From Balanoglossus misakiensis (taxonomy: Eukaryota; Animalia; Hemichordata), in assembly GCA_040954595.2 (NCBI GenBank), contig CM082592.2:5364209-5428208 (forward strand): DNA of 64,000 bases. Direction: 5' to 3'. The notes beneath the pieces were generated by a model, which saw only the letters and a list, made by a program, of their open reading frames with translations, was not told the DNA's origin and did not search any database. The position numbers were made by a program, and so were the translations under genes. Below, one piece after another: positions 19,189 to 62,025 of the stretch; positions within the stretch are counted from its first letter, which is position 1; each line of letters opens with the position of its first letter.

Positions 19189-34958
<15,770 letters not shown>

Positions 34959-35664
34959 GCTGGTCTTTACAGGTTACTTAAGAAGAGTCCAAAAGCAGCT
35001 TCCAATGTCTATTGATGGAAACACAAAAAATTGCACCTCATGTCAAATGTACATTTTCGGATGATGTCTTGTCTATGGGTATCCCAAAGCCTAGCCCTAT
35101 GGGTAGGCATGACAAGGGTGTCCGGCTTTGGCTGTGCTGCCCCCATCCCCCCCCCCTGCTAGCAGGGAGGCAGTACATGTCTGTGTAACGCCGGGAACAC
35201 ACAGACCTGCGTCATTGTGAATCACAAACTGCAACTGTATTTGTAAACAATGTACCCTGATGTGTATGTTCGAAATTGAAGACACAGCCAGATGGCCAAT
35301 ACTTCAATATTGAAAGGGGTGAAAGTTGTAGGAGGGAAAATTGTAAGGACGGCAGGGATCGGCAAATCAAACGACCTTATTCCAAACACCCAACGCTCAG
35401 TGACAGTCTCAGACAACATCCATATCTTTGTGTATTGCGGAAGGAAATATAGGTACACATGCTTGGGCACCCCATGTGAACACGGACGGAGATCGTGGGA
35501 TTGCACAGACGTAGCAGAAATCAAAACTTACCTTTAGAACGGTTGACTGGCTCCAAGAGAATTCCTACTCGCTTGTATTACGCAGAGAACCAGTTCTATT
35601 ACGAGAGCAGATTTTATAACACCAAAACACCAGCACATTCACGATGTGCAAGCTCAGCACATCA

Positions 35665-37445: not shown

Positions 37446-40400
37446 TTAGCAGAACTCTTCATCACCAGACATGTCCCTGAAATGAAGAATGAAAATAGAT
37501 GCACTATTACATTGAGGTTATGATAACACATAATAGCGCTATGCTTGGGACAATTGGTTCCTACAGCTATAACTGCTGGTTTGATTAAACCATAATTTGA
37601 AATGAAAACATCGCTCGATTTTTAGTAATTTGACAAAAATAAGAATAATTCCTGACTGACATCAAACAATGACAAATAAGAATCGAGAGATCACCATAGC
37701 GATGATGACACACAGACTTACTCTTCATCGAAGTCTTCATCCAACTGTTCCAACAGCGAGGGTGCCTGATCCAACATGACTGCATACAATCTATCCAAGT
37801 ATTGCTTCTGTCGAGTGCTCTCTTCTACGTTTTCTTGAAGGACATTCAAGATTTCAGACTGCAAAAAAAACACACACAGAGGAAAATACTTAGGCTGGTT
37901 TTGTCTTGCAGGTGTATTCACCACTGTGGTGGTTGTTCTATACACTATACAACTGATGTCCAAAATCATCTGACATCTGACATTTGAAATGATTTCTCAG
38001 TCCCCTTCCAGAAGCAACCGCACATGTCAATTATTATGCATCCAGGCTTCCAACAGTTTCCTCTGTCTTGTAAAAAAACAAACACTGACCTTCTGAGCTG
38101 TTTTGAGTACTTCCCAGACCGGCACATCATCGTCATTCAGATAGACTACCGAGTTGTGCTTCTTCCTGTCTGCGTTCTCCAACTGAGTGATGAAATCATC
38201 TCTCTCCTCTGTCACCGCTGCCAGTGCTGCCTCCTGTTGGGAGGAGGAGGAGGAGGAGGAGGAGGGGACGGGGTCAATAGATATCTGGCTTATAAAATAT
38301 ATAACTAAGCCAATGATCAGAAAATCATGCTAACACCCACATACATGATACACACCAGTTGGTTATTCAGTATACTAGATATCTATCGGAATGTACTAGA
38401 CACTACATGAAACACTGGAATACAGTTATTCTGTACACCAGAATCCAGATTGCATGAGCATATACCTGTTGTTGGCACGTTTTTTGTAGATTATTGATTC
38501 TCTTGGCACTCTCTGCAAGTGCTGCTGTTTTCTTCTTGATTTCAAGCTGCAAGATACAATACAATACAATAACGTCACATACAAAGCAATGCAATACCAT
38601 CAGATACAATACTAAGAAGGACATTAATGTATAATGTTTTCCTATACAGTAAACTTATTTTATGTCACCCACCTCCAGTGCCCTTTTCTCTTGTTCTAAC
38701 TGGTCCAGACTCTCCTGCGTTTCACTGTATCTTTGCTGTGATCTCTGCAGATCACCCACAGTGCTCTCCAAGTCTTGACACTGCGACTCTGAATCACTCA
38801 GCTGTGCGAAACACAAGAAGAATGGTGGTCAAATGTCTGACTCTGCAGATGGTTGTGACCCAATACTGTTATTCTCACAGGTACGCACATGATAGAATGC
38901 ATTCTGTTTGATGTGACTTACAATAATTCCAATCTCAAATACAAACTTCATCTGACCATATATATTCAGAGCGAATTTACGAAAAAAATCACAATATTCA
39001 GACACTGCGATATATCTACCTGTTTCTGGAGTTGTTTTACTTTTATTTCAGCATCGTCCGCCTTCTTGGCTTTTGTTTCTAGGATCTTCAGTCTGGAAAA
39101 AACGGCACAGCGATGTTACAAACAACATATCAAATAAAATAGATCTTTACCTTGAGTTGAAGAAACTTGATCTCATATCAAAACTGTACAGACCATTTGA
39201 GGTTGATTTAAAAAAATTGTCATCAATTTGAAACTGAATTTTATTTGCACATCTTTGTGCAGCTGGTCAATGATGTTTACCTTGCCACTTCTTCTCTCAG
39301 CTCAGCCGTCTCTCTCTTCTCTGATTGGAGGTTGGCTGCAGCCAATGACAACTCTTCTTCCATTCTGTTCATCTTCTGGGTTGTTTTAGGATCAGTGATT
39401 GGCTGCTGCTGCTGCTGCCTTGGCTGTTCTCTCAATACAACTATCTTCGCTGACATCTTGCTGTTCAGCATTGTATTGACTTCGGCATCGGACGACTGGA
39501 ACACGTTGACGCCATTCACCTCTATAAGTCTGGACACAGAGAAAGAGATGTCTTGTAATCAAGCATATAATTAATGTGTACAAATCAATCAATTAGTGGA
39601 TGGAGGGGTCCTATAATGGAGGAGGGTACTGCAATGGAGGATCACATACCTGTCTCCTTCTTTCAGGACTCCATTTGAATCACAAGACGTCACAAACACA
39701 CCATCCTCCTCAAATTCACCGGACGACACAATGAAATCGTAACCATAGTGACCGGGAACAATTTCCATGGCGATGACGGTGTGAGCTTCTTTGAGTGGGA
39801 GTATGGAGTGTAGAGTCAGGGACTGTTGCTTGGCTTTTGACTGGTAAGGAACACAAGAAGACTGTTGGTTAGTTTAACATTGTAAGCTACTTGACGGATC
39901 AAGTTACATCCATGAAGAGTGAATCCCAATTTTATCATTTAACATTGACAGGTTTATTGACAATTAAAGAGACCATCCACCCAAGATGTATCATATGCTT
40001 GGATTAGTGACAGACACTTTACCTTTTAAACCCTATAAGCATGCAATACAGTATTTTATCCCTTCAATGGTCAAATAGATAGATACCTTTATGAATTAGT
40101 GTACTTCTTTGCGTGCAGTCAAAATCAAAGATTATCATTTTGACTTTTCAAACAACACCAGAACAGCACCACCACCTCATGAAAGGTCAATACCAAATAA
40201 TGATTACGGTATTAAATGAAGGAGGCACTCATGATTTAATACATAGGTGAGAGTCCACAGATAATTCCACACGCAAAATCTAAATGGTGATGCAGGACAG
40301 AATTGATGATGTAATATAATAGAGTGGAACTGATGATGACATAGGACTGAATTGATGATGTAGTAAGGTGGAACTGATGATAAAGTACGACTGGACTGAT

Positions 40401-43400
40401 GATGTAACAGGACCAAACTAATGGTGCATTGACCAGACTAAATGACATGGTCAGAAAAGACTGTCAATCTGGTAGGATCGACATGAATATTGCTCACCAG
40501 CACCAGATCAATGTTTTGGAACAAGGAAAGTGTCACAGGTGGATAAGAAAACTTGTGTATAAAATGGCAGAAGAAATGATGAGAAAAGATGCATATTAAA
40601 ACACTTTTACTCGGAAATGATTTTACACTAATAGTCACAATGACATGCAAATAGTGAGTTTCACATGCATCAACCGTGCGTTCACATGACAATCCTTACC
40701 CTCTCTTCCTCTTTCTTCTACAGTTGTGTTTTACGCATTTCGGGGACAGTGTGTACACAGGCCAAGCAGAGACCCCAACACAGAACATTGCATCACAGAA
40801 GCAGGCAGGCAACACATACAGTATCACAACGTCACAGTAGATCAGAGGGAAGAAAACAAATAGAAATTAAGCAAAAAGTGAAAAAAAATTACTGATCAGT
40901 GTATAACACACAAGTAAATTTTTTCACATGTAAATCATTGAGAGAGTTTGTGTGACTAAGTGTACGTGTATGTCTGTATACCGTATGTCAGCATATTATT
41001 ATGAAGTAATTTCACAATTTCAGTTCAGACAAGACAGATATTGATATAACATCTATCAAATGTTTGAGAAATGACTGCAACATATCAATTCACACTGTGA
41101 CCATGGAGTCAAAACAACATGGAAAGCATTTTCATTCCTCAAATGTTGGAAGTTTGTTGTGTCATGTAATCATCAATTCATATTTTCCACAGAATTTTAC
41201 ATGAAAAAAAACCCCCAGCTCTTGAAGATTTGTGCTCTACCTTTTCTTGTTGTAACTGGTGTTCATACGTTGCAAACTCCAGCTCTGTAAACTGTGACAT
41301 CTGTTTTTGCTGCAAAGTTAGAAGATTGGATTCCTCTGATGCTATCCTGTACTCCAACTCTGCCATCTCAGCCACTCCGCTGCTATTCCTACATCACACA
41401 AGAACAGTTCACTTTGCATTATTTGATAATTTGTTTACATGACGAATTAACTGCTTTAATGCATTACCGAAGCACATGTATATTATGAAGATTGATGCAA
41501 AATATTTGTATACAGCAAAAAACTTGTTGTGAGTGATTAAAAAATCTTGATTGATGTCTGGGAGACGGGAAAAATATCACAATCTAATTGAATGCCACAA
41601 AGGTAAATAGTCTCTCAGTATTCTCATTGTTGTTACTCTGTCACATCTTACGGCAAAACCAACAGTATGGCCATATTGTCCGAAGGGTTTATTAATATTT
41701 AGAGGTCTAACATTATTGTCTCTGTACCTCTAAGACAGAATAACACCACCGTTTTTTTCTTTCTGGGGACATAAAGACCCTCACCTCTGCGACTGCTCGC
41801 TGCTCATCTGTAGTTCCTGGCACAATTTCTGGACCTGTTTCTCTTTTGTTTGCACTTCTTGAGTTGTGTGTTCTAGTTGACCTTTGAGGTCAGCGACAGC
41901 CAATGGCAACACTTCTAAATAATGATAATAAGGGTATGACTGTACAATGTAATATGCTCAGTTTTGTATAGCCTAGTACTGGTAGTTGAAAATGCCCAAA
42001 ATGAATAATTCACATCACAAAGGAAACATCTAACAATAATGAATGACACTCACCTCTGTCTTTGACTTCTTGTCTTTGCTCTTGTTTCTTTTTCATGCGA
42101 CTCTGCTGCCTGGTGTAATTGTCTTGTAACTGAGTAATGGTCTTTTGAAGTAAGATGAGCTGATGGAGAAATTAAGATTTGTATTGAGATCAATGAATGG
42201 TGGGGTGCATTTTTGTCACGTGAGCGCTTGCCCTTGCTCAAAGTCAAACACAAAGACCAAGACACATATATATACAAACAAACAGACCGAACACAATACA
42301 CTCTCTTGTTTGGCATCTGTAACCAAATCACAACTCTATTTCATTTCTCAGTACTTTCAAATCGATATCTGTATCTTGCCCAACAGGTAAGAATTTCTGT
42401 CCATGTGAGGTACATGTAGTGTGAAGACACTTAGATTTCCTGCCACAGGTGGGCCAACGTCTAATTCAAAATGGAATCGTTCATAATATGTGGATAGTCC
42501 ATACATGCATTTCAACATCACACCAAAATTCTTTAGTGTAGTGATAAGACATTATGTGAATCAGACCTTCTTGTCTCTCTCCTGAAGCACTTTGTTCTGC
42601 TCCATCACTGTGTTGACATGATCTCTGTTCATCTGCAACTCATCTTGAAGTTCCCGCACTTTCATTTCAAGCTGTGCAGAAAAGATACAATGTTATTGAT
42701 GGGTGCCTAACTGTGTGACTGACTAAACTCCTTTCAAAACAATTTATATTTCAATTCAATTAGCTGTAGCATGGAAACTCTCTTGTAGTCACTTTTAAAA
42801 TGAAAGTTATGACTGATATAAGGAAGAACCCAATGTTGCATACCTCCATAACTTTCACACTGAGTTCATCTCTCTTCAAGCCATCATACTTCTCTGCCAC
42901 TGCTCCATCCTTCTCGGAGTTCTGCGACAGCTCTAATTCAATGGACGCCATCTGTAATGATAATGTGCAAGCTTCAGTTGATTATCATTTCAAATCTACA
43001 GCTTCCATGTGCATGTTTCAAGATATCACTGGATGAAAGTGTCCAATGTAACTAATACAGAGACTCAGAGCACTGACTACTGGAATCAGTATCAATCAAC
43101 AATCCCTTGGAAAAACACTAGACAGGTAAAAGAAAGGGGGAATGTCCACACATCCATATTGTACTTGGGATAAATGTATTAAAAAAACCTGGAGTTACGG
43201 TAGGATTGTTTGACTTTTTGGTTTTCAAATGTCAACGGTTCTTACCTCAGCTTCCAACTGATTCAATCTATCTAGCTTGGGTTTGAGTGATTCTGGCAAA
43301 TGTGAACTGCCCTGCATGTGTTGTGTGCATTTTGCCCATTGGTTGTTAGGATGGAAAATGTAGACGCTAGACAATGATCAGTTACTTTTTTATCAAGAGT

Positions 43401-46400
43401 GCTCAGAACACAGACAGAACACCATGCTGTGGTGAAGGGTGGCAGGGTGCATGGTTTCTATATGTGCGTTTGCAAAGTAGAACTACACGGCATAGAAATC
43501 TGTAATTGGTAAAATTGCAGAATTTTCTAGAACAGAGTTTTTTTTGTGTGTTGCACTGTACAAAGGTGTCAAACATTCCAACACTGTCAATAGGGGAAAT
43601 CATTCTGAAAACTTTTCAAAACATGCTAAACCATGGGGGGGGGGGGGGGGGGGGGGGGACAGACCCAAAGACCAGTTCACTCACTGACACCCAGTCTGTA
43701 AAACCTTTGATAACACTACAGGTGCTCAAGCACAGCAACCCATTACACTCACACCGCAAACCACCCTACTTGCAGTCCACTTACCTTGGAGGAATTCTTG
43801 GAAGACGTTGACGATACCTTGGAGGTCTGAGAAATGGAAGAAGTGTTTCTGCTAACCACTGTGTTGTCCAGCTCATCTACTTCTTCAGTGCCTGCTATCT
43901 GGTTCTCCACATTGGCTTTGTCACAGAGGATGAACTGGTTCGAAGTGAGTTGTGACGGAATTTCCATGTCTTGCACCACGCGGATATCTGGAAGAACAAA
44001 TTGGAAATTTCAGTAAGACTCTAAGAGAGAAAAATTTCCCAGGCATATATTTATAGTATTTCATCAACTGCAATATCCAGAAGGCCAATTATCCTGTTAC
44101 TCTAATACTGCATGTATAACAAGTCACACCTACTGATTATTCAAATTCCTTGTTTGATGGTTGTCATGAATTGTAAAACACACACTTGGAATACATTGCA
44201 AGAAAACATTGTACCTACCTCCATTGTTGTCAAGTTCTAGCAGACAGAAGACGGAGATGTCAACATCTGTCATGTCGAATTTCCTGAGAGCTAACTGTAA
44301 TACTTCATAAGATGGTGTAGAGGCAGACACTGCCAACATCTTGCCTCTTGCCTTGTGACCACTGATGCGGTCCATGACCTGAAGATAAAAATATATCGAC
44401 TGATGGATCAATCTCACAATTCTACTGGTGGACAACAACATGGGTGAAGCAAGACAGCCAAAACCAAGCTATCTGCTACATCTCATACATTTTTTATCTA
44501 CATGGGTTTTGATAACAGCCATGTTACCATCACATCAAGCATTATGTGTCCGCTAGTGGCGTGGATGAAAGAGGGCACTGTTTACCTTAATCACTGTGCC
44601 CTGTTTGTGCCTGAGTTCAAATCTGTACGATGAGGTATTCAACCAGTTTTTCTGGATCTTCAGGGGACATTCATTTGCTCTCAATTGTCTCTCTGGAACT
44701 ATAAAACAGAAAAAAATTAAAACAAAAGTAAATAAATGTTGACTGACTGATGTGAAAAGACCTGTGATTACATGTAGCTGCAACAGGGCTTGCACCAATC
44801 CAAGATTAGTTTATCCTATTGTTTCAAACACCTTGGTTGAATCTATATACAGCATAATAGGGGTGGCAGGGTTTGAAATGACAGCACTGTAATAAATCTA
44901 ACTACTGCAGCAACGGAATTATCAGAACTCAGCGAAAACGATGCTGTTGATGCTATAATGGAAATGGTCTACTGCAGTGAAGTGGTCCCAAATGCAAGTA
45001 CCCAACATGATGCTGGGCTGAAACACAGCCGAGTCAATGTTGTGGTCTGTCGAAAATAAAGGCTGCAACGGACCACAAGTGACATGATGCAGCACTGCAG
45101 TTGAAGAATTGAGAAACTGGTGGATTATGATTCAACACTGCAACGCCTGTCGCCAACTAACTCTGCCAGGAACTGACTGTAACCTCATCAAAACAGCAAA
45201 ACTAACCGAGGCAGTAAAGCATGGCTTGGCACTTAAAACAGAGGCATTACACTAGTCAAATTGGTGAAAAATCATGATACCACACCAATGATAGCACTGA
45301 TATAATGCAATATAAAGAAATGCGGCTGAAAATTCAATGGGAACACTGCAATGAATTTTACTTGATCAGAAACAGAACCCAACTGGCCTGTTCAGTACCA
45401 TACCTTGATACATCAACGATAAAACTGTAAAAACCAATAGGGGTGCCCAAGAAGAAAACATACAGAAACATTTAATCGCAAAATCGTCTGAAAGATTGTA
45501 TAGATATATTTCATTTTAATAGAAATGTGAATTTTAGATTAACGGAAGTTAAAAACTATGACTGATAACCATTAAACCAGATAAATTTAGCTTTCAGGAG
45601 TTAGGTGATGGGGTGGGGTCCATTTCTTTATGGGAAGGGGAGAGAGGGGAATTAAACTCATCCTAAATTAAGTGGGTGAATCATGTAGCACATAAAAAAA
45701 ATACCTCAGCCTGTAGAATAGTTACATACCTCCTTAAGATATTTAACAAACTTCTGAATGAAAAAAAAAAATTCATAAAGGGAAAATGCCATTTCTTCTA
45801 CACATACTAAAAGCCCTTAGTGATTACACCTTTAGTTTACTGAACCCTTTACATGAAATGAAACCTATCAAACCAAAAGCTCTGCATAAACAAGAAAACA
45901 GTATACAACGCTTTGCCTCCTTTGGACAAAATGCGTAAAAATCCCAGTTTTACAGTATTCCCTATTTAGCATTGATCTCATTTTTAACCCTAATGCTGCC
46001 AAGTCAGTTTAAACTGGTGTGATTTCCAGGGTGCCTAGAATCCGGGCTCCCAGGCCCGTTAGGCTGCCAAGTGTGTGTTATTCAGTAGGACCTATACAAG
46101 ACCCTCAGACCAATACAGTACAAACCAGTGCGATTTGGTACATTTTACAGGGGCTCAGACAGCCAAGTGTGTATCAGTACGATTGAGAGCCATGTCAAGA
46201 CAGTCAAAATACGTTTTAGAAGAAAAAGTGGCAAATACGTATTTTAAGGGACTTGACACTCTAACCAGGTTTGACACCCAGTAGCATTAGGGTTAATGCG
46301 TCCGATCAACCCATCCCAACTTATGTCTGCCTCACCTGGATCGTGCACATCGTCATTCACCAGAGGCACTTCCACAATACTGTAGAGTCTGGCATCTTCC

Positions 46401-49400
46401 ACCAGGCTGTGCTGCTCCAGGCACTGACGGATCATCTCATCCGTGGTCGTGGAGTCCGTGGCGTGGAATGAATCACACCGGAATTTACCTGTCCAGACAC
46501 GGAATGGAAATATGCATTTACAGAGATGTAGAGTTACATTCTCAATATTGATGGTGTATATTAAGATATTTGAACTGACTGGTTATCGCTGATCAATACT
46601 GGTTTTCAACTGGTTTTTACTCATCTAGATTGTATTTCATCTGAGTATTATTGTATTACATGTAGTTAATACTAGAAACACGCAATATACAGATGTCAAG
46701 TCTTTAATATATAAACCCATATGAACTAATAGATCAAACTGGTTAACACTGATATCTGAACTGACGGGTTACAACAATACGACATTTCTCTCTCACCTGC
46801 TTGGTTAGTATTTGACCATATCTGGACGGTTTTGGAGTCTTTGAAATCTTTCTTCTTTAGTGATTTTGGTGATATTGCTTCTTTGAATTTAGAAAATCTA
46901 ACGAGGGAAAAAAAAATTCCATCATCTTTGAAATGTTAGAAACAGAAAATCCAGAATTTCATGTTTTTTTTCTGAAGTGCAGCATTTTGAATAATTCAAA
47001 TGCCAGAAAAAGTAAATCATAACAGGGACAAGTCACTATACTGTGACTCTCTTTTTAATTCAGTTGATAATTGCAACAGAAATAGTTGAAGAAAAGGGGT
47101 AAAGTCTACACATGTTTTGGGGGCACTCTCCGCATAATCCGATGAGGTTATCTTACAAAATTTATTTTTGACATCTTATCAAGCACCTGACTCATTAATG
47201 TGCATGCTAACACTTTAACAATAAGATCTTTATAGAAATGTTTATCCTTTTCTGTATAAAGGTCAAAGTTTATTGTACAAGTAAAACAATTATTTAAATG
47301 GTCACGACAGCTGCTATTTTAAAATCAATATTTCTTTGGCAAAGAATCCTAAACAGAATTGCTTACATAACACAGAACTGTGGAAAATGCTGTAATTTCT
47401 CCGAAGATAACGTATGCCTGACAACTTACCCACTGTGAGACTTTCTTTTGCTCTCCTTATGCTTGCCCCCATTACTCTGTTCCACGGACTTGACAATGTC
47501 CGTAGTACTTCCGTTAGACTGCCCTGGTGGCGGAAGCTGTACGTTTTCCTGTGAGTTTAAGGCACTGACTGCTGCCATGTATTTCTGCCTCTCATAGCCA
47601 GTGGATTTTTGTGCTTCGTCTGAGAGTGAAAATGTTAAGATGGCGTATTGATCAAAGAGTACTCACATATACTGTTACATTAACTTGACCAGATGTGATG
47701 TTATTCATCATATACATGTAAAATATTCTTCAGTACAGATATAATTAGGAAATTTACCCCCTCACAATTTACCATATGGACATTTCCAACAAGCAATATA
47801 GGCTATGGTTAGGGAGAGGGTTGAGGTAAGTGTCTTGTGGGTAAATCTCCACGGGGGTGGGGGGGGGGGACTTGTCCAAGATCCCTAAAGACAAGCAATG
47901 AGACTTTCACTTACTGAGAAGCTGATCTGCATTTGCTGCAGCGGTTGGATTGAAGAGCTCATAGATTTTGGACAACACCTCTTCTCTTTCGTTGGCAGAC
48001 TTGATGTTCATATCCTCTGTAGAGACAGAATATTTTTACAATACAAGTCACAATGAAATTTAATGTAATTAAAATATATTTTTAGATAAAAAAAATCATA
48101 TGCCATAGTAGAATGTACTGTGAGCTTTTTAGCGAAGATCTCAAATGGTGACATTTTTAACATGATCACCAACAAAGACACAACTCACCAAGTAATGGAA
48201 GATCAATCTCGGCAAGATCCTTGCCTGTAATATGTTTGGCTGTAAAAAGAAACCAAAAGAGTGAGACTGGAGGTCATGTAGTACACTACTGCATGTATCA
48301 GCTTTCGAGAAACGGCTTTTGATATCTATTTTGAGCGTGCTGGTACCTTTGAAAGCTGGCACATGCTTGCTGAGTCCAACTACTTCAAGCCATGTAATGA
48401 CATCACCATCCGTCCATTCCTCTACAGGCACTGTGTGAGTTCCATCAGCTGTGAATGTCTTTGGCGGACTGATTATGCCACCTGGATCACAACAAGACAA
48501 ACAGGAGAAAAAGTTTTTCGTCAAAGAATCCAACTTACAGTTGCACCGAACAATCAAAGTGTATCTTCTGACTTTTCTGCAGACAGACGATTTCAAGGAA
48601 AATGTATAAAACACGTATGACAAACTCACCACCTCCTACTGGTTTCTCCGCTCCATGGGAATTCACATGTACTTTGGAAGACTCCACGTTCTGTGGTTCT
48701 GATTGCATAGACGTCTGGTGGCTGGATATCAGCTGATCAGCCAGCTTTTGCTCCTCTTTCAATTTGGCAATATCGGCATCAATTCGACTCTCCTGGTCTT
48801 CTTGTAACTTGAGGAGCGTTTCCAACTCTCCTGATGCTTCCACAAGAGTACTGTTGTCAGGGGTCGATATCTCTTTCTTATTTGACGGCTGTACACTCAC
48901 GACAGGTGCTGACTTCGGTCTTTTCTTCAGTTTTTCAACTTCTAGCAGAAAGGAGGCTCGGATGTCTTCCTCCTCAATATCCAAATCAACTGTAAAATAT
49001 GTAAAAAAATTAATACATTATACACCTATCTGGAAAATTGCATGATTGGTTATATTCATCTCTGCATCCCAATACCATCAGCTAGCATTTACAGTCCAGT
49101 AAATAATAGTTGATTAATGAAAGGTATAGTGCAAATGCCAAGAAGCGACTTACGTAGATCTCTTTCTGTGACTTGCGAAAGGTAATCACCATCAATACCA
49201 CATCCTGTACAATATCAAAGCAAAGGTAATGCATCAAAATCATGATGTACACACAAGTGAGGAATTGAAAGTATTCAACTGTCATGGCCACGTGCAGTGC
49301 ATGTACTGAGTTGAAACAATCAGTCAATGGTATGCATATTAACCTAACATTGCGTTTGAGATTTATTTTCACGTACTGCTGATGTCAATCAATGTCATCT

Positions 49401-50002
49401 CAATGACAAAAGTGTACATACAAATTACTTTTTTCTACCACTGGTTTGTAAAATTATTCTACATCAGACACATAGTATGACAGCATACCTTCAAACATGT
49501 CAACAAAATAATCCAGTTTCACTGCCAGCAACCAATCGATGACATCCTGCTCATTCCATTTTTCCACAGGGGTGGTCAGCCAGGGGGCAACGCCATGATC
49601 CTCAAAATCCATCCCAATGTCAGCATCATCATCTGTGTTCATCACACCTCCCGAGGCAACACTGCCGTCGTAGTGCTCGTTGAAAACCACCGTCGACGGC
49701 ACATTCGGCTCAACACCGGCGGCCGGATCGGACACGCTTGACCTCGCGCTTCCTGCGCGCGGTGGAGGTAGAGGCGCTGTTCTTCTGTTTGACCCCTGCC
49801 GAGCGGGAGCAACTGGCACACTGTTGACGTAGCCCACTTGGTCCACGTTAGATCCACCTGAGTCCACAGCAGGCAGTCTCTGGTTCACACCAGGCGCCGT
49901 CATGTAGATATTTTCGCCGACACTGAGACGTGTCGCGTCCGACCGCGGCGGCGGCTCTGGCTTGTCCTTCTTCTTCTTCTTTTTCCTTCCGAAGAACGGC
50001 AT
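37446..50002 (-). CDS. Uncharacterised multidomain scaffold: 2x SAM, 2x Ras-association, coiled coils, PDZ, C-terminal Rab11-FIP-like RBD; about 25 exons
   Basis: Exon 1 49489-50002 (MPFFGRKKKKKK). SAM1: PVEKWNEQDVIDWLLAVKLDYFVDMFE-GCGIDGDYLSQVTERDL. SAM2: PVEEWTDGDVITWLEVVGLSKHVPAFK-AKHITGKDLAEIDL. RA1: TTTDEMIRQCLEQHSLVEDARLYSIVEV..ERQLRANECPLKIQKNW. RA2: KMLAVSASTPSYEVLQLALRKFDM. PDZ: GHYGYDFIV..GVFVTSCDSNGVLKEGD-RLIEVNGVNV. RBD-like: EILNVLQENVEESTRQKQYLDRLYAVMLDQAPSLLE. Last exon 37446-37476 reads DMSGDEEFC-stop. Confidence 0.85.
40700..40717 (-). CDS. Candidate 18-nt microexon (KKEEER) of the scaffold gene
   Basis: TAG|AAGAAAGAGGAAGAGAGG|GTAAGG. Phase 0-0, matching the flanking exons that end at 41241 and start at 39840. 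Confidence 0.6.
45404..45424 (-). CDS. Candidate 21-nt microexon (VLSLMYQ) within RA1 of the scaffold gene
   Basis: TTTTTACAG|TTTTATCGTTGATGTATCAAG|GTATGG. Phase 1-1 with an open frame, matching the flanking exons. Confidence 0.4.
45988..46292. mobile_element. 305-bp piggyBac-like MITE
   Basis: TTAA|CCCTAATGCT ... AGCATTAGGG|TTAA. Confidence 0.7.
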
Positions 50003-50455
50003 CTTGTCAAGTTGGCACAGTCAAACTCTAAAACCACATGAAAGACTTCAAACTGTCTGTTCCGTATGGGACATTTCCTAGCTGCTAACTGTTTCACATA
50101 TTCTTTTACCTATGAAACAGGAAGAAAACATCATTCGATAGGCAGGGATCTCCTCACACCAGTCGATATGGCACTCAGAACCAGTGTCTGGTACAGTATA
50201 GTAAGGTGTTGTATACATTTTAAAAAGCTGGAAATGGTACCAGATCCAATAGATCTATAAAGGCCACCTGTTTATAAAGGAAAGTTTAGTAAAGTCACCT
50301 GACTAATTAATTAATTAGTGCACAGTATTCTAGTGTATGGACAGCCAAGTGCAAAGTATCATCTGGACCCTGTTTGGATATTGTGTTGCACGACGTCTGC
50401 ATATCATTTATTCTATCAATGGCATCATGCTTGTAATTAATATTCATGTACATGT

Positions 50456-51814: not shown

Positions 51815-54800
51815 GCTGCGTTTTTTATCTGTCGGGTATAAGAAACATGCAGGGAAACTTGGTCATTTTTTTTGTCGCGGTTCACTTGGGCAAGTCTGAA
51901 TACGTATAGTGCTCAGGAAAGAGAAAGATAAACTCGCTAAAACCATGTCTTTCCGTCCGCGTGACCAACCAAAGAGCGAAAAAGTCATTATTCGGTTCAC
52001 TTGGGCAAGTCTGAATACGTAGTGCTCGCAGGAAAGAGAAAGATAAACTCGCTAAAACCATGTCTTTCCGTCCGCATGACCAACCAAGGAGCGAAAAAGT
52101 CATTATTTGGGCCGTAATAAAACGTTTTTGTCGCCGAGGAGTGAATAAAGAACGGTCAGATCGTTGCGGTGCAGGGAACTCTTATTTGCACCGCAGCGGT
52201 GAACTCTTATTTGCACCGCTGCGGTGCAAATAAGAGTTCGCACCGCTGCGGTGCAAATAAGATCATTGTAGTTATGCTGCAATATAGTGCGGTAAATTTC
52301 CGACCTTTTCGTGAACAGATCGTGCTGGCGAAGGGTTCAGGAAGGCTTGACTTTTTACCTCAAGGTGTCAACTGATGTTGGTTCGAGACCACTTTTTTCC
52401 TATTTCTTTTTTTGTGAGAACTTTTAACGACATTGTCATTGTAATTTTTATCAATTTCATAAATCCAATTTATTTCAATATCTACGCTGCGTTTTTTATC
52501 TGTCGGGTATAAGAAACATGCAGGGAAACCTGGTCATTTTTTTGTCGCGGTTCACTTGGGCAAGTCTGAATACGTAGTGCTCAGGAAAGAGAAAGATAAA
52601 CTCGCTAAAACCATGTCTTTCCGTCCGCATGACCAACCAAGGAGCGAAAAAGTCATTATTTGGGCCGTAATAAAACGTTTTTGTCGCTGAGGAGTGAATA
52701 AAGAACGGTCAGATCGTTGCGGTGCAGGGAACTCTTATTTACACCGCAGCGGTGAACTCTTATTTGCACCGCTGCGGTGCAAATAAGAGTTCGCACCGCT
52801 GCGGTGCAAATAAGATCATTGTAGTTATGCTGCAATATAGTGCGGTAAATTTCCGACTTTTTCGAGAACACATCGTGATGGCGAAGGGTTCAGAAAGGCT
52901 TGACTTTTACCTCAAGGTGTCAACTGATGTTGGTTCGAGACCACTTTTTTCCTATTTCTTTTTTTTGTGAGAACTTTTAACGACATTGTCATTGTAATTT
53001 TTATCAATTTCATAAATCCAATTTATTTCAATATCTACGCTGCGTTTTTTATCTGTCGGGTATAAGAAACATGCAGGGAAACCTGGTCATTTTTTTGTCG
53101 CGGTTCACTTGGGCAAGTCTGAATACGTAGTGCTCAGGAAAGAGAAAGATAAACTCGCTAAAACCATGTCTTTCCGTCCGCATGACTAACCAAGGAGCGA
53201 AAAAGTCATTATTTGGGCCGTAATAAAACGTTTTTGTCGCCGAGGAGTGAATAAAGAACGGTCAGATCGTTGCGGTGCAGGGAACTCTAACTTGCACCGC
53301 AGCGGTGAACTCTTATTTGCACCGCAGCGGTGAACTCTTATTTGCACCGCTGCGGTGCAAATAAGAGTTCGCACCGCTGCGGTGCAAATAAGATCATTGT
53401 AGTTATGCTGCAATATAGTGCGGTAAATTTCCGACTTTTTCGAGAACACATCGTGATGGCGAAGGGTTCAGAAAGGCTTGACTTTTACCTCAAGGTGTCA
53501 ACTGATGTTGGTTCGAGACCACTTTTTTCCTATTTCTTTTTTTTGTGAGAACTTTTAACGACATTGTCATTGTAATTTTTATCAATTTCATAAATCCAAT
53601 TTATTTCAATATCTTCGCTGCGTTTTTTATCTGTCGGGTATAAGAAACATGCAGGGAAACCTGGTCATTTTTTTGTCGCGGTTCACTTGGGCAAGTCTGA
53701 ATACGTAGTGCTCAGGAAAGAGAAAGATAAACTCGCTAAAACCATGTCTTTCCGTCCGCATGACTAACCAAGGAGCGAAAAAGTCATTATTTGGGCCGTA
53801 ATAAAACGTTTTTGTCGCCGAGGAGTGAATAAAGAACGGTCAGATCGTTGCGGTGCAGGGAACTCTTATTTGCACCGCAGCGGTGAACTCTTATTTGCAC
53901 CGCTGCGGTGAACTCTTATTTGCACCGCTGCGGTGCAAATAAGAGTTCGCACCGCTGCGGTGCAAATAAGATCATTGTAGTTATGCTGCAATATAGTGCG
54001 GTAAATTTCCGACTTTTTCGTGAACAGATCGTGCTGGCGAAGGGTTCAGGAAGGCTTGACTTTTACCTCAAGGTGTCAACTGATGTTGGTTCGAGACCAC
54101 TTTTTTCCTATTTCTTTTTTTGTGAGAACTTTTAACGACATTGTCATTGTAATTTTTATCAATTTCATAAATCCAATTTATTTCAATATCTACGCTGCGT
54201 TTTTTATCTGTCGGGTATAAGAAACATGCAGGGAAACCTGGTCATTTTTTTGTCGCGGTTCACTTGGGCAAGTCTGAATACGTAGTGCTCAGGAAAGAGA
54301 AAGATAAACTCGCTAAAACCATGTCTTTCCGTCCGCATGACTAACCAAGGAGCGAAAAAGTCATTATTTGGGCCGTAATAAAACGTTTTTGTCGCCGAGG
54401 AGTGAATAAAGAACGGTCAGATCGTTGCGGTGCAGGGAACTCTTATTTGCACCGCAGCGGTGAACTCTTATTTGCACCGCTGCGGTGCAAATAAGAGTTC
54501 GCACCGCTGCGGTGCAAATAAGATCATTGTAGTTATGCTGCAATATAGTGCGGTAAATTTCCGACTTTTTCGTGAACAGATCGTGCTGGCGAAGGGTTCA
54601 GGAAGGCTTGACTTTTACCTCAAGGTGTCAAATGATGTTGGTTCGAGACCACTTTTTTCCTATTTCTTTTTTTGTGAGAACTTTTAACGACATTGTCATT
54701 GTAATTTTTATCAATTTCATAAATCCAATTTATTTCAATATCTACGCTGCGTTTTTTATCTGTCGGGTATAAGAAACATGCAAGGAAACTTGGTCATTTT

Positions 54801-55235
54801 TTTGTCGCGGTTCACTTGGGCAAGTCTGAATACGTAGTGCTCGCAGGAAAGAGAAAGATAAACTCGCTAAAACCATGTCTTTCCGTCCGCATGACCAACC
54901 AAGGAGCGAAAAAGTCATTATTTGGGCCGTAATAAAACGTTTTTGTCGCTGAGGAGTGAATAAAGAACGGTCAGATCGTTGCGGTGCAGGGAACTCTTAT
55001 TTGCACCGCAGCGGTGAACTCTTATTTGCACCGCTGCGGTGCAAATAAGAGTTCGCACCGCTGCGGTGCAAATAAGATCATTGTAGTTATGCTGCAATAT
55101 AGTGCGGTAAATTTCCGACTTTTTCGAGAACACATCGTGATGGCGAAGGGTTCAGGAAGGCTTGACTTTTACCTCAAGGTGTCAACTGATGTTGGTTCGA
55201 GACCACTTTTTTCCTATTTCTTTTTTTGTGAGAAC
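51815..55235. repeat. Tandem array of about six near-identical units (core 552-578 bp), each with a long internal palindrome
   Basis: Units start at 51815, 52486, 53039, 53617, 54194 and 54746; the last is truncated at 55235. Unit 1 has an internal duplication of about 115 bp. Units 3 and 4 carry one extra 25-bp subrepeat. Confidence 0.97.
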
Positions 55236-55676: not shown

Positions 55677-56679
55677 CTAGGCTTCTGGATCTTGGATTGG
55701 TCGCTGCTGGTCATCGTTAATGCTGCGCTTGCGTATCAAATGCCGGTAATTCTCGGGTCTGAACACGGCGTCTGCGTTGTTGAAAAACGGGTGATTGGCG
55801 TCGATCTCGGGCAGGTCTTCGGGTAACTTAATCTTGACCAAACCTGGCATTAGGAACTCTTCTGCTGGCCTCAAATTCCAGTCTGGTAGAGGTATCTGAA
55901 ATAAAATGATAATCCCGTTTATTGGGGAAAAAATATGGAAGGATGAATTCAGATGTAATCACGTGAAAGTAGTGTTTCCAGAAAATATCCACTTACTTTG
56001 AACTTTGGTTCGCAGGGACCTGGAAGTGTTCTCTTACCCGATTTTATTCATCAGTTATCTCATAAGAAGTTGCATTCAAGGGATTGTATTTTAATACGCG
56101 ATGAATACTCATTCCCACTTGGCAACAGGTTGGACTAAACACCGTTGGCTATAAATCATTTAAACTTGTTTTCATTTTTAGGCTAGGGCGCGGTAATTTC
56201 TTTGCAATACTGTGAGTGTTGTGTTTATCGTTGGAATATTTCATATTTTTTGTCTACAAATGTCTTGTGATCGGTAGAGGATGATAGCGTAAATAACGAT
56301 TGTCGATTTTTCTGCCTACATTTTAAGGATTCATTGGACGTGTGGCGATGTTTCGATCCGCTAGGTCATCCTCACCTTAATTTATAAGCAAATATTTTCA
56401 TTTCATACATGTTTTACTGGGACAACTTCGACAAACGGATTGACTTACACCATTTCCCAGGTTTAGAGTCGGATTTTGCGCATCCTGGCCTTCGTCTGCG
56501 CTGCTCCCTTCTTCGGCACCCGGCGTTGTGACTGTGCCATCGCTTCCGTCGGGGGCTGTCGAGGTCGCTGTATCGCCGCGACCGGCGCCCGGTAAAGCTT
56601 GGTCCTCCTTAGCATTATCCGCAGAAACACCGAGGAACACCAAGGCCAGAAGAAATCCCGCTGCACCAAGTAATTGCAT
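55677..56679 (-). CDS. Orphan secreted protein or peptide precursor, 149 aa, 2 exons
   Basis: Exon 1 56449-56679 (signal peptide MQLLGAAGFLLALVFLGVSA, acidic G/A/T-rich region, GTAAGT donor). Exon 2 55677-55895 (IPLPDWNLRPAEEF..RHLIRKRSINDDQQRPIQDPEA-stop). The join is phase 0, and a TATAAAA lies upstream at 56743-56749. Confidence 0.75.
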
Positions 56680-59600
56680 GTCTTTCAGAAGTGATGTATC
56701 ACGAACACCAGTTATTAACGGCGGCTGATAACTGCGCTGTTGTTTTATAATCTGCCTGATTTGACGCGATTTTCAATCTTTTAATATAAAGGCAGATGGC
56801 ACTCGTGTCTGCAGCAGGTAGACCCAGAATGAACCAATCAAAATAGTACACATTTCACTACAATATAACTATATTAATAATGGCATATTCTGTTGGTTAT
56901 AATATTATAAATAATTCATTTTGGAACTTACGCGAACTTTTAAATCCACATTCGTGGATTGCTTAAGGCCGAATCGCCCAACCGCACAAAGTCTTCAGTA
57001 TCTGCTATCGCGTATTTCTTGAAATAATGCAATTCATTACTTGAATTCTGTAAAAAGGTGAAAATCTAATTTTAAACACAGGAGGTCAGTTGAAAACGGG
57101 AACGTGAAAACCGAGGAAAGATACAGTATTTGAAAGGCAACTAGTTAGAGAAACGCAGCAAGCTTGCTGTGATTTTAGAGTAGGCCTAGACATTTCCTGG
57201 TTGGACGATTACCAAACATTTATCAGTGTTTCGTACAAATTAAGCCCAAGTGACGCTTTCAATTGGAAAAGTACATAATTTACGGCGATCACCAGAATGA
57301 TAAAGATCTAGGGCTGAAATACACCTTTCCGCTCATTTGTTGGCAATCAGAAATATTTTCGTGAAAGTGATAAATAGTGCTATTGTCCAGCAGGTAAATT
57401 GATTTACAGCGTGTTTCCACTCATGATACTGCCCGACTTTTGCTTTTTATTATCAATTAATATATCACCAGCTGACTTCGCCCTTTTTTATTGGTACATA
57501 ATGCTTTCAACATTTACAACCCCAAATTCAGGTTGTACAAACATGATCCTAATGAGGGGTCGCGACCGGTGATATCAAAAGAACTTGCTTTTGCTTTCCG
57601 GAAAAATTCTCTGTGTTTGTGTCAGGGGTAAGAATAGTGATGTGGCGTTTCTTATTTTTTCTGTGCTAAGTTTGCCGTATGGTTTTCATGCCAAACGTAG
57701 TCTTTTTTAACCGGATTGACATACTAAGTCATAAATTTACTCCCGATAAGTATTTCACCTTGGCGTAGAAAAATCACTGTCCCACGCAACTCACGGTAGA
57801 CCGTTTTTCGAAGTCCGTTACATTTTTGCTAAAGTCATGTGCCTATTCTAGTTTCATGCGGTTATTAACCAAGCCTGGCTAGATCTCGTTGAAATTCATT
57901 TATTACATCATACATGCATGTATCACTATTTGCAGTGCATAGTGTCAAGGAGAGGATTGAACCGGTAGTTAGGATAACCAAACTGATAACATGTTACAAT
58001 AAGTCAGTATACATGTCGTAATAATGTACTTACGTATATAAAGGTGAGGGTCAGAGAAGCCCGCTCATAAAATGCCAACGTGGTCGTCTGATATTTTAAA
58101 GTTATGCCTGCTTTGAAAGGAATTCGGTAACACGGAAATTCGAAAATTTACATGCCACCAATAAAGTTGACTGTTTCTCAGGCTGACCTTGATTTTTTTC
58201 CAGGTGGTGCTAGGAATACGTGTGCACACATGTTGTTTTGCATTCAAACTCATGCGCTTTTACTGACGCAATTCATTTGTGGTATGCGCAACCAAAGAAT
58301 CTATATCCGCGTTATTGTGTGTCTTTCTGCGTCACCGGATCACCAGCTTTTGAAAATAAAAATGAAAATATTTATTGAAAAATGGTACAACTCTTTGATA
58401 CTCCGTACTACATTGGGAAATGACTAAGCCTCGAGATGCCAGTTGGAGCAAATTGTTGTAGTGGACAAGTCTTTGAAACAACTGTTTTGCTACAATGGTA
58501 TAAAGTTACCCCAGGCTCTAATAGCCAGAATAACATTTAATACTTCTCATGCAAACACACTGCCACGGAGCCACTGTCTCTTTGCTATCATCCGTGCATG
58601 CTTGTTTTAAGTTTGCACCTTGCATCAAGCAATGACTGGCAATTGGTGTTTCCTTTCAAGAAGTGTAGCATTTAATGTGTTTGACAATCGAGTGGGTATA
58701 TGGCACAACAAACACTCGTATCACCGTAATGGTTAAAAAACGGTTCAGGAATTTGTTTGTTTTACCTGTAAAACTCGAACTCAGTGGCATACTAGGTAGC
58801 GTGAATAGTTACGTAGTTAAAAAGTGCAAGGCGTTTTAATGGGTTAGTGACACATAAATCTGTTTTCTAAATACCGTTGTATATAAAACCGCCACAAATC
58901 AAATCGAAACGTATGAAGTCGGCATAACACCGGTGCCAAAAGTGAGTTTGCTGAAGCTATAGCGAATGTTCAAGTACTAACCCCCACACACTGTGGTTGA
59001 ATTATGATTGCGCTATTTTATTCTGTTGAACTCAGTATGCCGTTGGAAAGTTAGCTCTTCCTAGGCTATCGAAGTAATGTTTCATCCAGGAAAATTATTC
59101 CAGAAAAACAATGATTTGTGAAATCTGAAATGATGAAAGTACACTTTAAGGCAGCAACATGCACGGCTTTTCAGATCTGGCCGTACGCAGTCTGTGTTCA
59201 CTGGAACGTCTGCGTAAAAATCTTTTTCCCTTCTCGACTGTTGTTAGAGTGGTGCCATGGGAAGTCAGGAATGTGACAGGTGTTTTGCCATCCCTATATT
59301 TCCATGAATTTCAAGAAAAGAAGACACGCAAGCCACGTGGCAAAAACATTGGACGTTGCTCAGTACTGTTTCGTTGTGGTGGTTAAAAAACGCCTAAGAG
59401 TTTAAAAGCGACACGGCAGTCGTTTTTTATTTATCGCTTTGATTAAGTGACAGCAAAACTGTGCATTCGTGTCATCAAATTCCATTGCTGTAGATGTTGT
59501 TGACGTTGAAAACACCTGCAATAAGCTTCGAATGTAGTTGTTACTAAGAAACTTTTGACCATGGCAACACTTTGAGAATTTAAAATTTCTTCGTTCTGTT

Positions 59601-59803: not shown

Positions 59804-59811
59804 TATATAAA
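59804..59811 (+). promoter_or_regulatory. TATA box of the BRICHOS precursor gene
   Basis: TATATAAA about 100 bp upstream of the ATG at 59910. Confidence 0.7.
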
Positions 59812-59909: not shown

Positions 59910-61645
59910 ATGAAAACTTTGGTGATCCTCATTTCTTGCCTGTTGTTGGCCACCGTGCAATCTGCCCCTACAGAGTCAGATGCACCAAAGGTATTCCTTT
60001 AAACCATCTATTTCGTTTTCTGAATTTTCTCAGCTGTGAGAAGATCACTACCAGTTTAACAGAGTTTACTAGTAATACGTCGACCCGGTTTTGTTGTCTG
60101 TTTATATAAGTGACAGCATACTTGGATTTTTCTTCATTGCAAATGATGCGGCGCCACGTATTCGCTTTGTTGCTGAATGTATTTGAGATGATTCTGCCAA
60201 TGCGCCGCCAAGTTGTATCTTCTCCATTCCACAAGCTTTAACTTATTTATACCACACTCCTATCCCGTGTTATATTTTCTTTTCCCTGTGTAGAGTAACA
60301 CGTACTCCGTGAAAATTACTGACAATGGCGTTGAGAAGGAAGAGGAGATCACTCTTGACGAAGAGAAGAATGTGGAAATATTCAAGACTGTCGATTCCGA
60401 CGATGCTGAGATAATTGAAGATTTTGACGCGGTGGGTGACAACATACAACTTTTACTTTTAAGTTTTCTAACCGATTACATGTACATTGATTTTGTCCGC
60501 TGAACGCCTATAATATACGCTTCAAAATGTATGTTATTCAAGAATTAGCCAATTTCCAAAGAGTAATAACCAAAAATGTTAGAATTTGAGAATACTTGCA
60601 CAAAACATTAAAATAGATACAATTGTATTATCATCGAACTGAAGATAAAAACTCCGTTATAAGTGTACTGGTAAACGAGTCTTTAGCTCCACCAAAACGA
60701 TTTTTGGGGGTAAATCAGGAACATGGATTTCTTTAAAATAATTCACATTCAATTTTTTCTTTTTCTTGTTCAGGGAATTGAAGCCATAGTGCCCGCTGAT
60801 GGTCCGTGTTACGTGAAACCGTTGAAGAGTGACGAGAGTGTGCCGCCCGCACAGTTGAAAACTGATATCGAAAGCGCAAAGGTGAATGCCGTACAAATCG
60901 TTGTCATGTAGTCAACCGCCTACTGTGGCGAGTTTTGCTGTGAAAATAGACAATTTTCCGAACTCAACGAGACCCTGCGAGATCTCACGTGACTAGGCAG
61001 TTTATATGGGGGGGGGCATGCTCTTGTGACACTGGTCAAAGAACACATGGTCCATCGTGTTAAAATGACATATTTTGTGGGGGGGGGGGGGGGTTAAACC
61101 CTCCCTAGTTTGGTTTTATAAAAAGCTTGACTTGTATTTCTCGGCTAGCAATCCTTATTGGGCAACCATGTGTTGCATAGACGTAACCGTTGCTCTTTTC
61201 CTTTTTAGGAGACAACTCAGGAAGCCGAGGAAAAACCGGATGACTACTACACGCTGGCCGGCACTCCGGTCAAAAATCGCGCTGTCGTCGGTGAAACCAT
61301 CGGAGCAAAGTGTGAAGGCAGAGACATCTACTGGCTGGCGTCAGTTCCCCACGGAGATGAAAGTAGGTAGAATTTTGGAGATTTTTGGAATGTGAAATTT
61401 TGGAAGCGACATTTCTTTGTACAGTATTCCAGCACATTGTTATGCGCATGGCAGGTTGCATAAACCGACACACTGCAAATTGGCGAATGAACAACTAACT
61501 CAAGATGCTTGTGTTTTTTTTTTCTATAGGTCGAGATAAACGCGGCTGCTACTGGTACCGGTACTGCAGGTACTACTACTACCGCTGCGGGTGGGGCCTG
61601 TGTTGGTACCGTCACTGCTGGTACATCGTGCGTTGTTATTACTAA
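59910..61645 (+). CDS. Secreted BRICHOS-domain precursor (198 aa) of a 33-aa Cys/Tyr/Trp/Arg-rich C-terminal peptide
   Basis: Exons 59910-59990 (MKTLVILISCLLLATVQSAPTESDAPK), 60294-60431 (..AEIIEDFDA), 60774-60881 (GIEAIVPADGPCYVKPL..), 61209-61362 (..VGETIGAKCEGRDIYWL..) and 61530-61645 (SRDKR-GCYWYRYCRYYYYRCGWGLCWYRHCWYIVRCYY-stop). All introns are GT-AG, phases 0,0,0,1. BRICHOS hallmarks: DFxxG aspartate, CY-x-x-P and I-x-x-x-C-x-G-x-x-IYW. Confidence 0.92.
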
Positions 61646-62019: not shown

Positions 62020-62025
62020 AATAAA
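62020..62025 (+). terminator. Polyadenylation signal AATAAA of the BRICHOS gene
   Basis: Located 375 bp after the stop and followed by a GT/T-rich element (GTGTGTCTG..TTCTTTTT). Confidence 0.65.

Follow-up and report, generated by a model that had tools for sequence, protein, structure and literature searches.

The question raised by the DNA analysed here, a stretch of 64,000 nucleotides (nt) from contig CM082592.2 of the acorn worm Balanoglossus misakiensis (the window in the following), is whether five short exons near its end encode the precursor of an antimicrobial peptide that is delivered by a BRICHOS domain. In the literature found, the BRICHOS antimicrobial peptides that have been assayed are all annelid (PMC11767717, PMC13001179). 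The initial annotation had joined the five exons to one protein, and this reading holds (Table 1). From sequence comparison, structure prediction and analogy we consider it probable, though well short of certain, that the gene encodes an acorn-worm BRICHOS precursor, which would be secreted and cut after an RDKR site to yield a 33-residue cationic, disulfide-tied hairpin acting as an antimicrobial host-defence peptide.

The five-exon model, in which splicing is deduced from homology, is almost certainly correct. A family profile made of 11 outside relatives, with no sequence of the window in it, was scanned over the window, cut from stop to stop into 3,285 pieces. The five exons took ranks 1-5, in order and on one strand (E 1e-22 to 9e-5), and the next piece followed at E 1.1. 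All four introns (303, 342, 327 and 167 nt) are bounded by GT..AG, have pyrimidine tracts and lie in phases 0, 0, 0 and 1. The spliced model comprises 597 nt, corresponding to 198 amino acids (aa) plus stop, and reaches 136.5 bits with a profile built from 20 more distant matches, versus 6.0 bits for the best of 500 shuffles; as these 20 members were retrieved through a close relative, their independence is incomplete. Over its full length, the model aligns with the protein P0006 from the hemichordate Ptychodera flava (61% identity over 200 columns). Where the first intron of the window gene falls, two isoforms from P. flava show a difference of two residues, and three relatives lie whole on contigs of 1.07-1.37 kb, as expected of spliced transcripts. 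Both observations fit the same splicing.

By its sequence, the encoded protein belongs to the BRICHOS proteins, as had been claimed. Exon 4 alone matches the Pfam family with 20.1 bits, which is under the 25-bit cut-off, and all 11 full-length relatives match Pfam BRICHOS (best E 2.8e-16, 59.9 bits, residues 61-154). The family profile also finds the BRICHOS domain of human Bri2 (8RNU, E 2.9e-7). One aspartate and two conserved cysteines define the superfamily (PMC2751770, PMC6265681), and D70, C85 and C144 of the model align with D70, C86 and C147 of P0006, the columns conserved in an alignment of 53 rows. The cysteine column of C85 is invariant in 53/53 rows and D70 is nearly invariant. The four-region layout of the superfamily (hydrophobic stretch, linker, BRICHOS, beta-prone C-terminal peptide) is present in the model. 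Using the structure model of P0006, which is of low confidence (pLDDT 51 overall), Foldseek placed BRICHOS entries at ranks 1 and 2, at E 0.09 and 0.3 only.

The precursor is likely to be secreted, judging from its N-terminus, which is hydrophobic at aa 4-16 after Met-Lys and carries an S-A-P that is conserved in close relatives as read by eye. A weak match of exon 1 to Defensin_propep (E 0.006) was dismissed as signal-peptide likeness only. The claim of an acidic pro-region is borne out, since residues 19-165 contain 36 Asp+Glu versus 17 Lys+Arg (net charge about -19, isoelectric point 4.3). The part that had been called an acidic linker is indeed acidic, but at about aa 28-58 its conservation within the family equals that of the rest. 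Two extra N-terminal strands have been described for most BRICHOS domains (PMC9714404), and the low-confidence P0006 model has strands at this stretch. Rather than a linker, residues 28-58 are likely to be strands at the N-terminal side of an extended BRICHOS domain.

Cleavage at RDKR is very likely in view of the sequence; the KR of the site is invariant in 12/12 aligned tails. The site is followed, as initially annotated, by a cationic 33-aa tail with six cysteines, GCYWYRYCRYYYYRCGWGLCWYRHCWYIVRCYY, which has a net charge of +5 and contains 11 Tyr, 4 Trp, 5 Arg, 1 His, no Lys and no acidic residue. The 15 aromatic residues make up 45% of the tail, its mean beta propensity is 1.25 and its reduced mass about 4.6 kDa. 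Four cysteines and a glycine at the tip are common to all 12 aligned tails; that of the window protein has two further cysteines and a tip extended by three residues. Its cysteines stand at positions 2, 8, 15, 20, 25 and 31 (spacings 5,6,4,4,5). The net charge and the spacings of at least three residues fall inside the criteria given for the hairpin class (charge +1 to +8, cysteine pairs at least three residues apart), and the use of Arg instead of Lys fits the Arg-over-Lys bias of this class (PMC13001179).

AlphaFold2 predicts a single antiparallel beta-hairpin with a Gly-Trp turn and no helix (pLDDT 83, pTM 0.35; 4/5 models near or above 80), the strands spanning residues 5-19 and 22-36 of the modelled 37-mer, i.e. 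residues 1-15 and 18-32 of the peptide. This places C2 opposite C31 and C8 opposite C25, and these pairs are the predicted cross-strand rungs (position sums 33 and 33). The remaining pair, C15/C20, has a sum of 35. On the model, we slightly favour C15/C20 as a third disulfide closing a four-residue tip loop, which would need a two-residue bulge because the pair is off the ladder register; alternatively, C15 and C20 could link separate molecules.

Arenicin-1 entries reached ranks 3 and 10 of a fold search with the tail (root-mean-square deviation 1.4 A over 20 residues), at a non-significant E of 4. Otherwise the tail has no Pfam family, no PDB sequence match at E up to 10, no Foldseek match below E 3, no VIA-align match above Z 2.8 and no usable Atlas match; these blank searches show neither novelty nor absence. 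In agreement with the initial annotation, no identical described peptide turned up, neither in PDB (0 matches) nor in the literature searches. Defensins of the CS-alpha-beta, vertebrate and big types have a helix-plus-sheet fold with C-x3-C and C-x-C motifs or a terminal CC doublet. An assignment of the tail to one of these types was rejected in view of its spacings, the absence of CC, the absence of a helix in the model and the absence of a Pfam family.

On sequence grounds, the gene belongs to a hemichordate family that has expanded and whose tails vary. The peptide had initially been regarded as one that cannot be matched. This has to be given up, because its closest relative, P0006, is already auto-annotated as 'arenicin-1-like' and carries a tail that is identical to the window tail at 21/29 positions. 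Look-up identified 14 P. flava RefSeq records (8 arenicin-like, 3 LECT1-like and 3 uncharacterized, two of them isoforms of one gene), 11 of which lie on one 44.0-Mb sequence, and three records from Saccoglossus and one from Glandiceps belong to the family as well. The 'arenicin-like' names are automatic and similarity-based, and no study of these P. flava proteins was found in the literature. Like the window protein, the arenicin-1-like proteins (XP_070572722/3, XP_070572756-59, XP_070544431) and their LECT1-like and uncharacterized paralogues have 196-201 aa (53-61% full-length identity), an R-x-K-R site and a four-cysteine frame C-x5-C...C-x5-C. They differ in their tails, which have 27-30 aa, four cysteines and a Gly-rich tip. 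A tree of the BRICHOS region only places the window gene inside the P. flava paralogues (97/87); its deep nodes are poorly supported and came with long-branch warnings.

When ten family members are compared pairwise, conservation is lower in the tail than in BRICHOS in 40/45 pairs (means 43% versus 61%). In all six close paralogue pairs the BRICHOS domains are 83-95% identical and the tails 38-72%. Near-identical BRICHOS domains with divergent tails are the pattern to be expected of defence effectors, as far as sequences can tell. The opposite has been reported for Alvinella, where the peptide is fixed and the chaperone varies (PMC5431198).

A wider family search gave 53 matches, of which 10 were looked up for their source records. 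The hemichordate proteins P0139, P0145 and P0146 have acidic, neutral or eight-cysteine tails on the same BRICHOS frame, and hemichordate BRICHOS therefore carries several cargo types. P0155, P0166 and P0180 are BRICHOS precursors with six-cysteine, Arg/Tyr-rich tails of 34, 46 and 27 aa, respectively, which are candidates for further long hairpin peptides. In P0155, a protein that groups with Oculina in the tree, the cysteines would pair as three rungs of a symmetric ladder (sums 36, 36, 36). Precursors with cationic, hairpin-like tails of four cysteines are P0148 (from an ark-clam cluster, Tegillarca), P0158 (from the coral Oculina), P0177 and P0182, and their sequences suggest that the BRICHOS peptide system is animal-wide.

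If the favoured reading is correct, the groove of the BRICHOS domain would hold the aromatic, beta-prone tail, as precedents in annelids and vertebrates make conceivable. A groove-bound tail has been modelled for human BRICHOS members (PMC9714404), and for alvinellacin such holding is put forward as a hypothesis (PMC4002450). The acidic pro-region might mask the positive charge of the tail during secretion, before a furin-type convertase would cut after RDKR and free the peptide. Its arginines could then draw it to anionic microbial membranes, where Tyr and Trp might insert and the peptide oligomerise, as described for arenicin-type peptides. Damage to microbial membranes has been demonstrated for abarenicin, UuBRI-21 and HfBRI-25 (PMC9410094, PMC10745061).

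Several observations weigh against an antimicrobial hairpin. With 33 aa the tail lies outside the 11-25 aa of the described hairpin antimicrobial peptides, as do its relatives with 27-30 aa (PMC13001179); this length makes a typical class member less probable but not a peptide that works like one. C15 and C20 are out of the ladder register, and a regular hairpin register gives faces that are not amphipathic, with 3 versus 2 Arg and 6 versus 8 aromatics. Compared with P0006, the window protein is 72% identical in the tail and 63% in the BRICHOS region, and this tail type is thus not fast-changing between species. Two of the three Saccoglossus tails are net negative (-1 and -2). By a rule of our own, only 12 of the 53 wider matches have a cationic cysteine-bearing tail; 22 have other tails and 19 lack the site. 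Finally, BRICHOS with a cleaved tail is also the layout of vertebrate proteins that are not known as antibiotics in the available part of PMC9714404, and some vertebrate BRICHOS proteins also have variable C-termini (GKN1, 26% identity; PMC2751770).

A first rival reading is a mucosal or signalling factor, i.e. a released peptide or whole secreted protein that acts like the gastrokines, chondromodulin or the Bri peptides and does not kill microbes directly. The vertebrate proteins share furin cleavage in addition to the layout (PMC9714404), a gastrokine-2 cluster is listed at 0.91 for P0006 in the Atlas, and both the neutral or acidic tails within the family and the constancy of this tail type between species would be in line with such a role. 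However, one species has up to 13 genes that combine different tails with nearly identical BRICHOS domains, and the tail has an Arg/Tyr/Trp/Cys composition with a net charge of +5. Both points weigh against such a role, and we regard it as unlikely. Acorn worms secrete much mucus and have halogenation chemistry, and the tail might also assemble by itself into a structural or adhesive component of the mucus or the burrow lining, as a functional amyloid or as a fibre crosslinked through tyrosines; BRICHOS would then delay this assembly until secretion. Its share of aromatics, their presence on both hairpin faces and its beta propensity are compatible with this idea, and BRICHOS clients are aggregation-prone (PMC9714404). 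We nevertheless judge it improbable: there is one short peptide per precursor without repeats, the paralogue tails diverge more strongly than expected in a bulk structural polymer, and the nearest functional precedents are antimicrobial. Both roles may coexist, for instance in fibres that could trap microbes.

A conserved pro-region with a variable cysteine-rich tail is also typical of venom-type peptides. The target of a defence peptide might accordingly be eukaryotes (parasites, grazers, predators or foulers), reached via membranes, chitin or channels, and not bacteria; nicomicin and the abarenicins are cytotoxic, too. No venom apparatus is known in acorn worms, and the tail matches no solved structure by sequence, or by fold above Z 2.8, which makes this explanation slightly less probable still than a structural unit. 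It is very improbable that the modelled six-cysteine tail is not produced, either because the gene is a silent copy or because exons 4 and 5 are spliced differently. A second GT does lie 4 nt downstream of the chosen exon 4 donor, but the chosen splice reproduces the junction of the relatives without a gap and yields the tail that resembles that of P0006. Other splice offsets at exon 4 were discarded, as they led to unrelated frames or stops. The gene is intact, with an open frame, canonical sites and its TATA box in place. Taken together, there are reasonably good grounds to predict, by analogy, that the gene works like an annelid BRICHOS antimicrobial precursor.

The annelid precursors of the arenicins, abarenicins, alvinellacin, capitellacin and HfBRI-25/29 resemble the window protein in their layout: a signal is followed by an anionic pro-region with BRICHOS, a dibasic, furin-type site and a cationic hairpin tail (PMC6265681, PMC10745061). 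In the alvinellacin gene the last intron is in phase 1 and all others are in phase 0 (PMC4002450), and the peptide is encoded in the last exon (PMC5431198). The pattern of the window gene is similar in both respects, as compared by intron phase and by the exon that holds the peptide. In contrast, alvinellacin and capitellacin have five introns and the window gene has four coding introns. The annelid peptides, which come from another phylum, are 21-29 aa long and have one or two disulfides. In the strict sense, arenicins have 21 residues and one or two disulfides (PMC13001179), and judged by its sequence the window peptide, with its 33 aa and six cysteines, is not an arenicin in that sense.

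Tachyplesin and capitellacin contain the C-x4-C spacing (PMC10745061) that is found at C15-x4-C20 of the window tail; however, tachyplesins have 17-18 aa and two disulfides. Theta-defensins are single hairpins with three disulfides as well (PMC13001179), but they are head-to-tail cycles of 18 residues without a BRICHOS precursor, and the analogy is one of shape only. Vertebrate BRICHOS proteins (Bri2/ITM2B, gastrokines, chondromodulin, OAF) share the one Asp, the two Cys and a furin-released, beta-prone C-terminal peptide modelled in the groove. They differ in being mostly membrane-anchored, in their few copies and in tails that are conserved within most families; in the parts of the cited literature available, no antibiotic role of these tails was found to be established.

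The initial annotation had expected a host other than a polychaete to widen the known range of BRICHOS effectors. This is correct insofar as no publication on hemichordate BRICHOS peptides was found in the open-access literature, including the supplements of hemichordate genomics papers. However, non-annelid BRICHOS proteins have already been proposed as antimicrobial precursors in the coral Pocillopora, where two BRICHOS-related antimicrobial peptides were predicted and detected by proteomics in settling larvae; as far as this source goes, their activity is predicted only (PMC12960093). These are cnidarian proteins, and those of Oculina, which have Arg/Cys hairpin-like tails, show about 28% identity. 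The tail had also been singled out as a longer, six-cysteine member. Its length and cysteine number are as described, but AmBRI-44a, a four-disulfide, defensin-like annelid peptide cited in PMC11767717, has more cysteines, and three other matches of the 53 have six-cysteine tails (P0155, P0166, P0180, see above). Neither six cysteines nor a non-annelid host is unique, because such tails and the ark-clam, Oculina and coral precursors exist. Annelid BRICHOS peptides are themselves already diverse, with 18-91 aa and helical, hairpin and 11-cysteine forms (PMC10745061).

A 2026 review lists 25 natural families of hairpin antimicrobial peptides from five phyla, all of 11-25 aa and, in its available text, none from hemichordates (PMC13001179). 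If active, the hemichordate family would add a phylum and a longer scaffold to these peptides, would extend to a new phylum a defence system assayed so far only in annelids, and would offer about a dozen natural tail variants on one chaperone that can be assayed together. A BRICHOS-delivered defence peptide in a deuterostome, if real, would make ancestral antimicrobial delivery by this domain testable. In humans, the BRICHOS domain guards against amyloid. Paralogues that differ in their tails but hardly in BRICHOS amount to a natural experiment on how specific a chaperone is for its client. Altogether, the finding is an extension that specialists would half expect. More tentatively, and on balance doubtfully, one could imagine that acorn worms have their own radiation of BRICHOS-delivered hairpin antibiotics, in which the window gene encodes the longest of a close family, a linear 33-residue, three-rung disulfide ladder with possibly brominated Tyr/Trp. 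Together with the coral, ark-clam and other precursors, this would make BRICHOS an ancient, animal-wide carrier that predates the protostome-deuterostome split and from which gastrokines and Bri2 were repurposed.

Table 1. Positions of the BRICHOS gene, its signals and its neighbours, counted from the first letter of the window
Feature	Position	Strand	Description	Evidence
Exon 1	59910..59990	+	aa 1-27: signal-peptide-like hydrophobic stretch (about aa 1-18/19) and short spacer	family profile E 9e-5
Exon 2	60294..60431	+	aa 28-73: acidic part, probably strands at the N-terminal side of an extended BRICHOS domain; includes the conserved Asp70	family profile E 2e-19
Exon 3	60774..60881	+	aa 74-109: BRICHOS core, first conserved Cys (C85)	family profile E 8e-12
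Exon 4	61209..61362	+	aa 110-160: C-terminal half of BRICHOS, second conserved Cys (C144)	Pfam PF04089 E 7.4e-4; 63% to P0006
Exon 5	61530..61645	+	furin-type site, terminal peptide, stop codon	family profile E 6e-8
RDKR proprotein-convertase site	61532..61543	+	aa 162-165, putative cleavage site	sequence
Predicted mature peptide	61544..61642	+	33 aa	sequence; AlphaFold2 beta-hairpin
TATATAAA (putative TATA box)	59804..59811	+	106 nt upstream of ATG	sequence
AATAAA (possible polyadenylation signal)	62020..62025	+	375 nt past stop	weak
GIT-family ArfGAP scaffold gene	1 to at least 2521	-	runs past the start of the window	GIT_SHD E 7e-11
SPT6 gene	about 19190-34960	-	about 30 exon pieces
Minisatellite	22488-22838		perfect 37-bp x 9.5 repeat in SPT6 intron
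Multi-exon gene	about 37500-50020	-	SAM and two RA domain pieces, coiled-coil-like C-terminus
Tandem array	about 51900-55200		unit about 554 bp, each with 2-4 copies of a 25-bp subrepeat; 115-bp doublet in addition
Two-exon gene	55678-56679	-	about 149 aa; exon 1 ends at 56448, exon 2 begins at about 55894

The two flanking signals that had been proposed fare differently. The TATA word TATATAAA is scarce, with 4 occurrences on the forward strand of the 64 kb, whereas AATAAA occurs 59 times on that strand (about 0.35 expected per 375 nt) and, being so common, is weak evidence for a polyadenylation signal at its position. Consensus words for NF-kB were absent from the 3.1 kb upstream, which is uninformative with 0.1-0.7 expected. 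Within the window the BRICHOS gene is single-copy, and the end of the window is 2.4 kb away from it.

A host other than a polychaete, which the initial annotation had considered, agrees with the SPT6 gene of the window, which groups with hemichordates; a polychaete or coral host is rejected on this gene. The SPT6 pieces, collected with Glandiceps as guide, amount to about 1,120 residues, with 83% identity to Glandiceps and no more than 65% to any full-length row from outside the hemichordates. For one SPT6 exon, Glandiceps (79%) and Saccoglossus (75%) come first among the 120 matches listed. A FastTree tree of 28 rows, from which four rows were left out and which holds no Ptychodera SPT6, joins the window with the two hemichordates (support 99) as sister to the echinoderms.

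An unannotated two-exon gene stands head to head with the BRICHOS gene at a distance of 3.2 kb. Its product has no Pfam match. Exon 1 encodes a signal-like N-terminus and Gly/Thr/Ala/acidic low complexity, with a TATA-like word near 56790, and exon 2 has an RKR dibasic site near its end. From these sequence features, the gene possibly encodes a second secreted peptide precursor.

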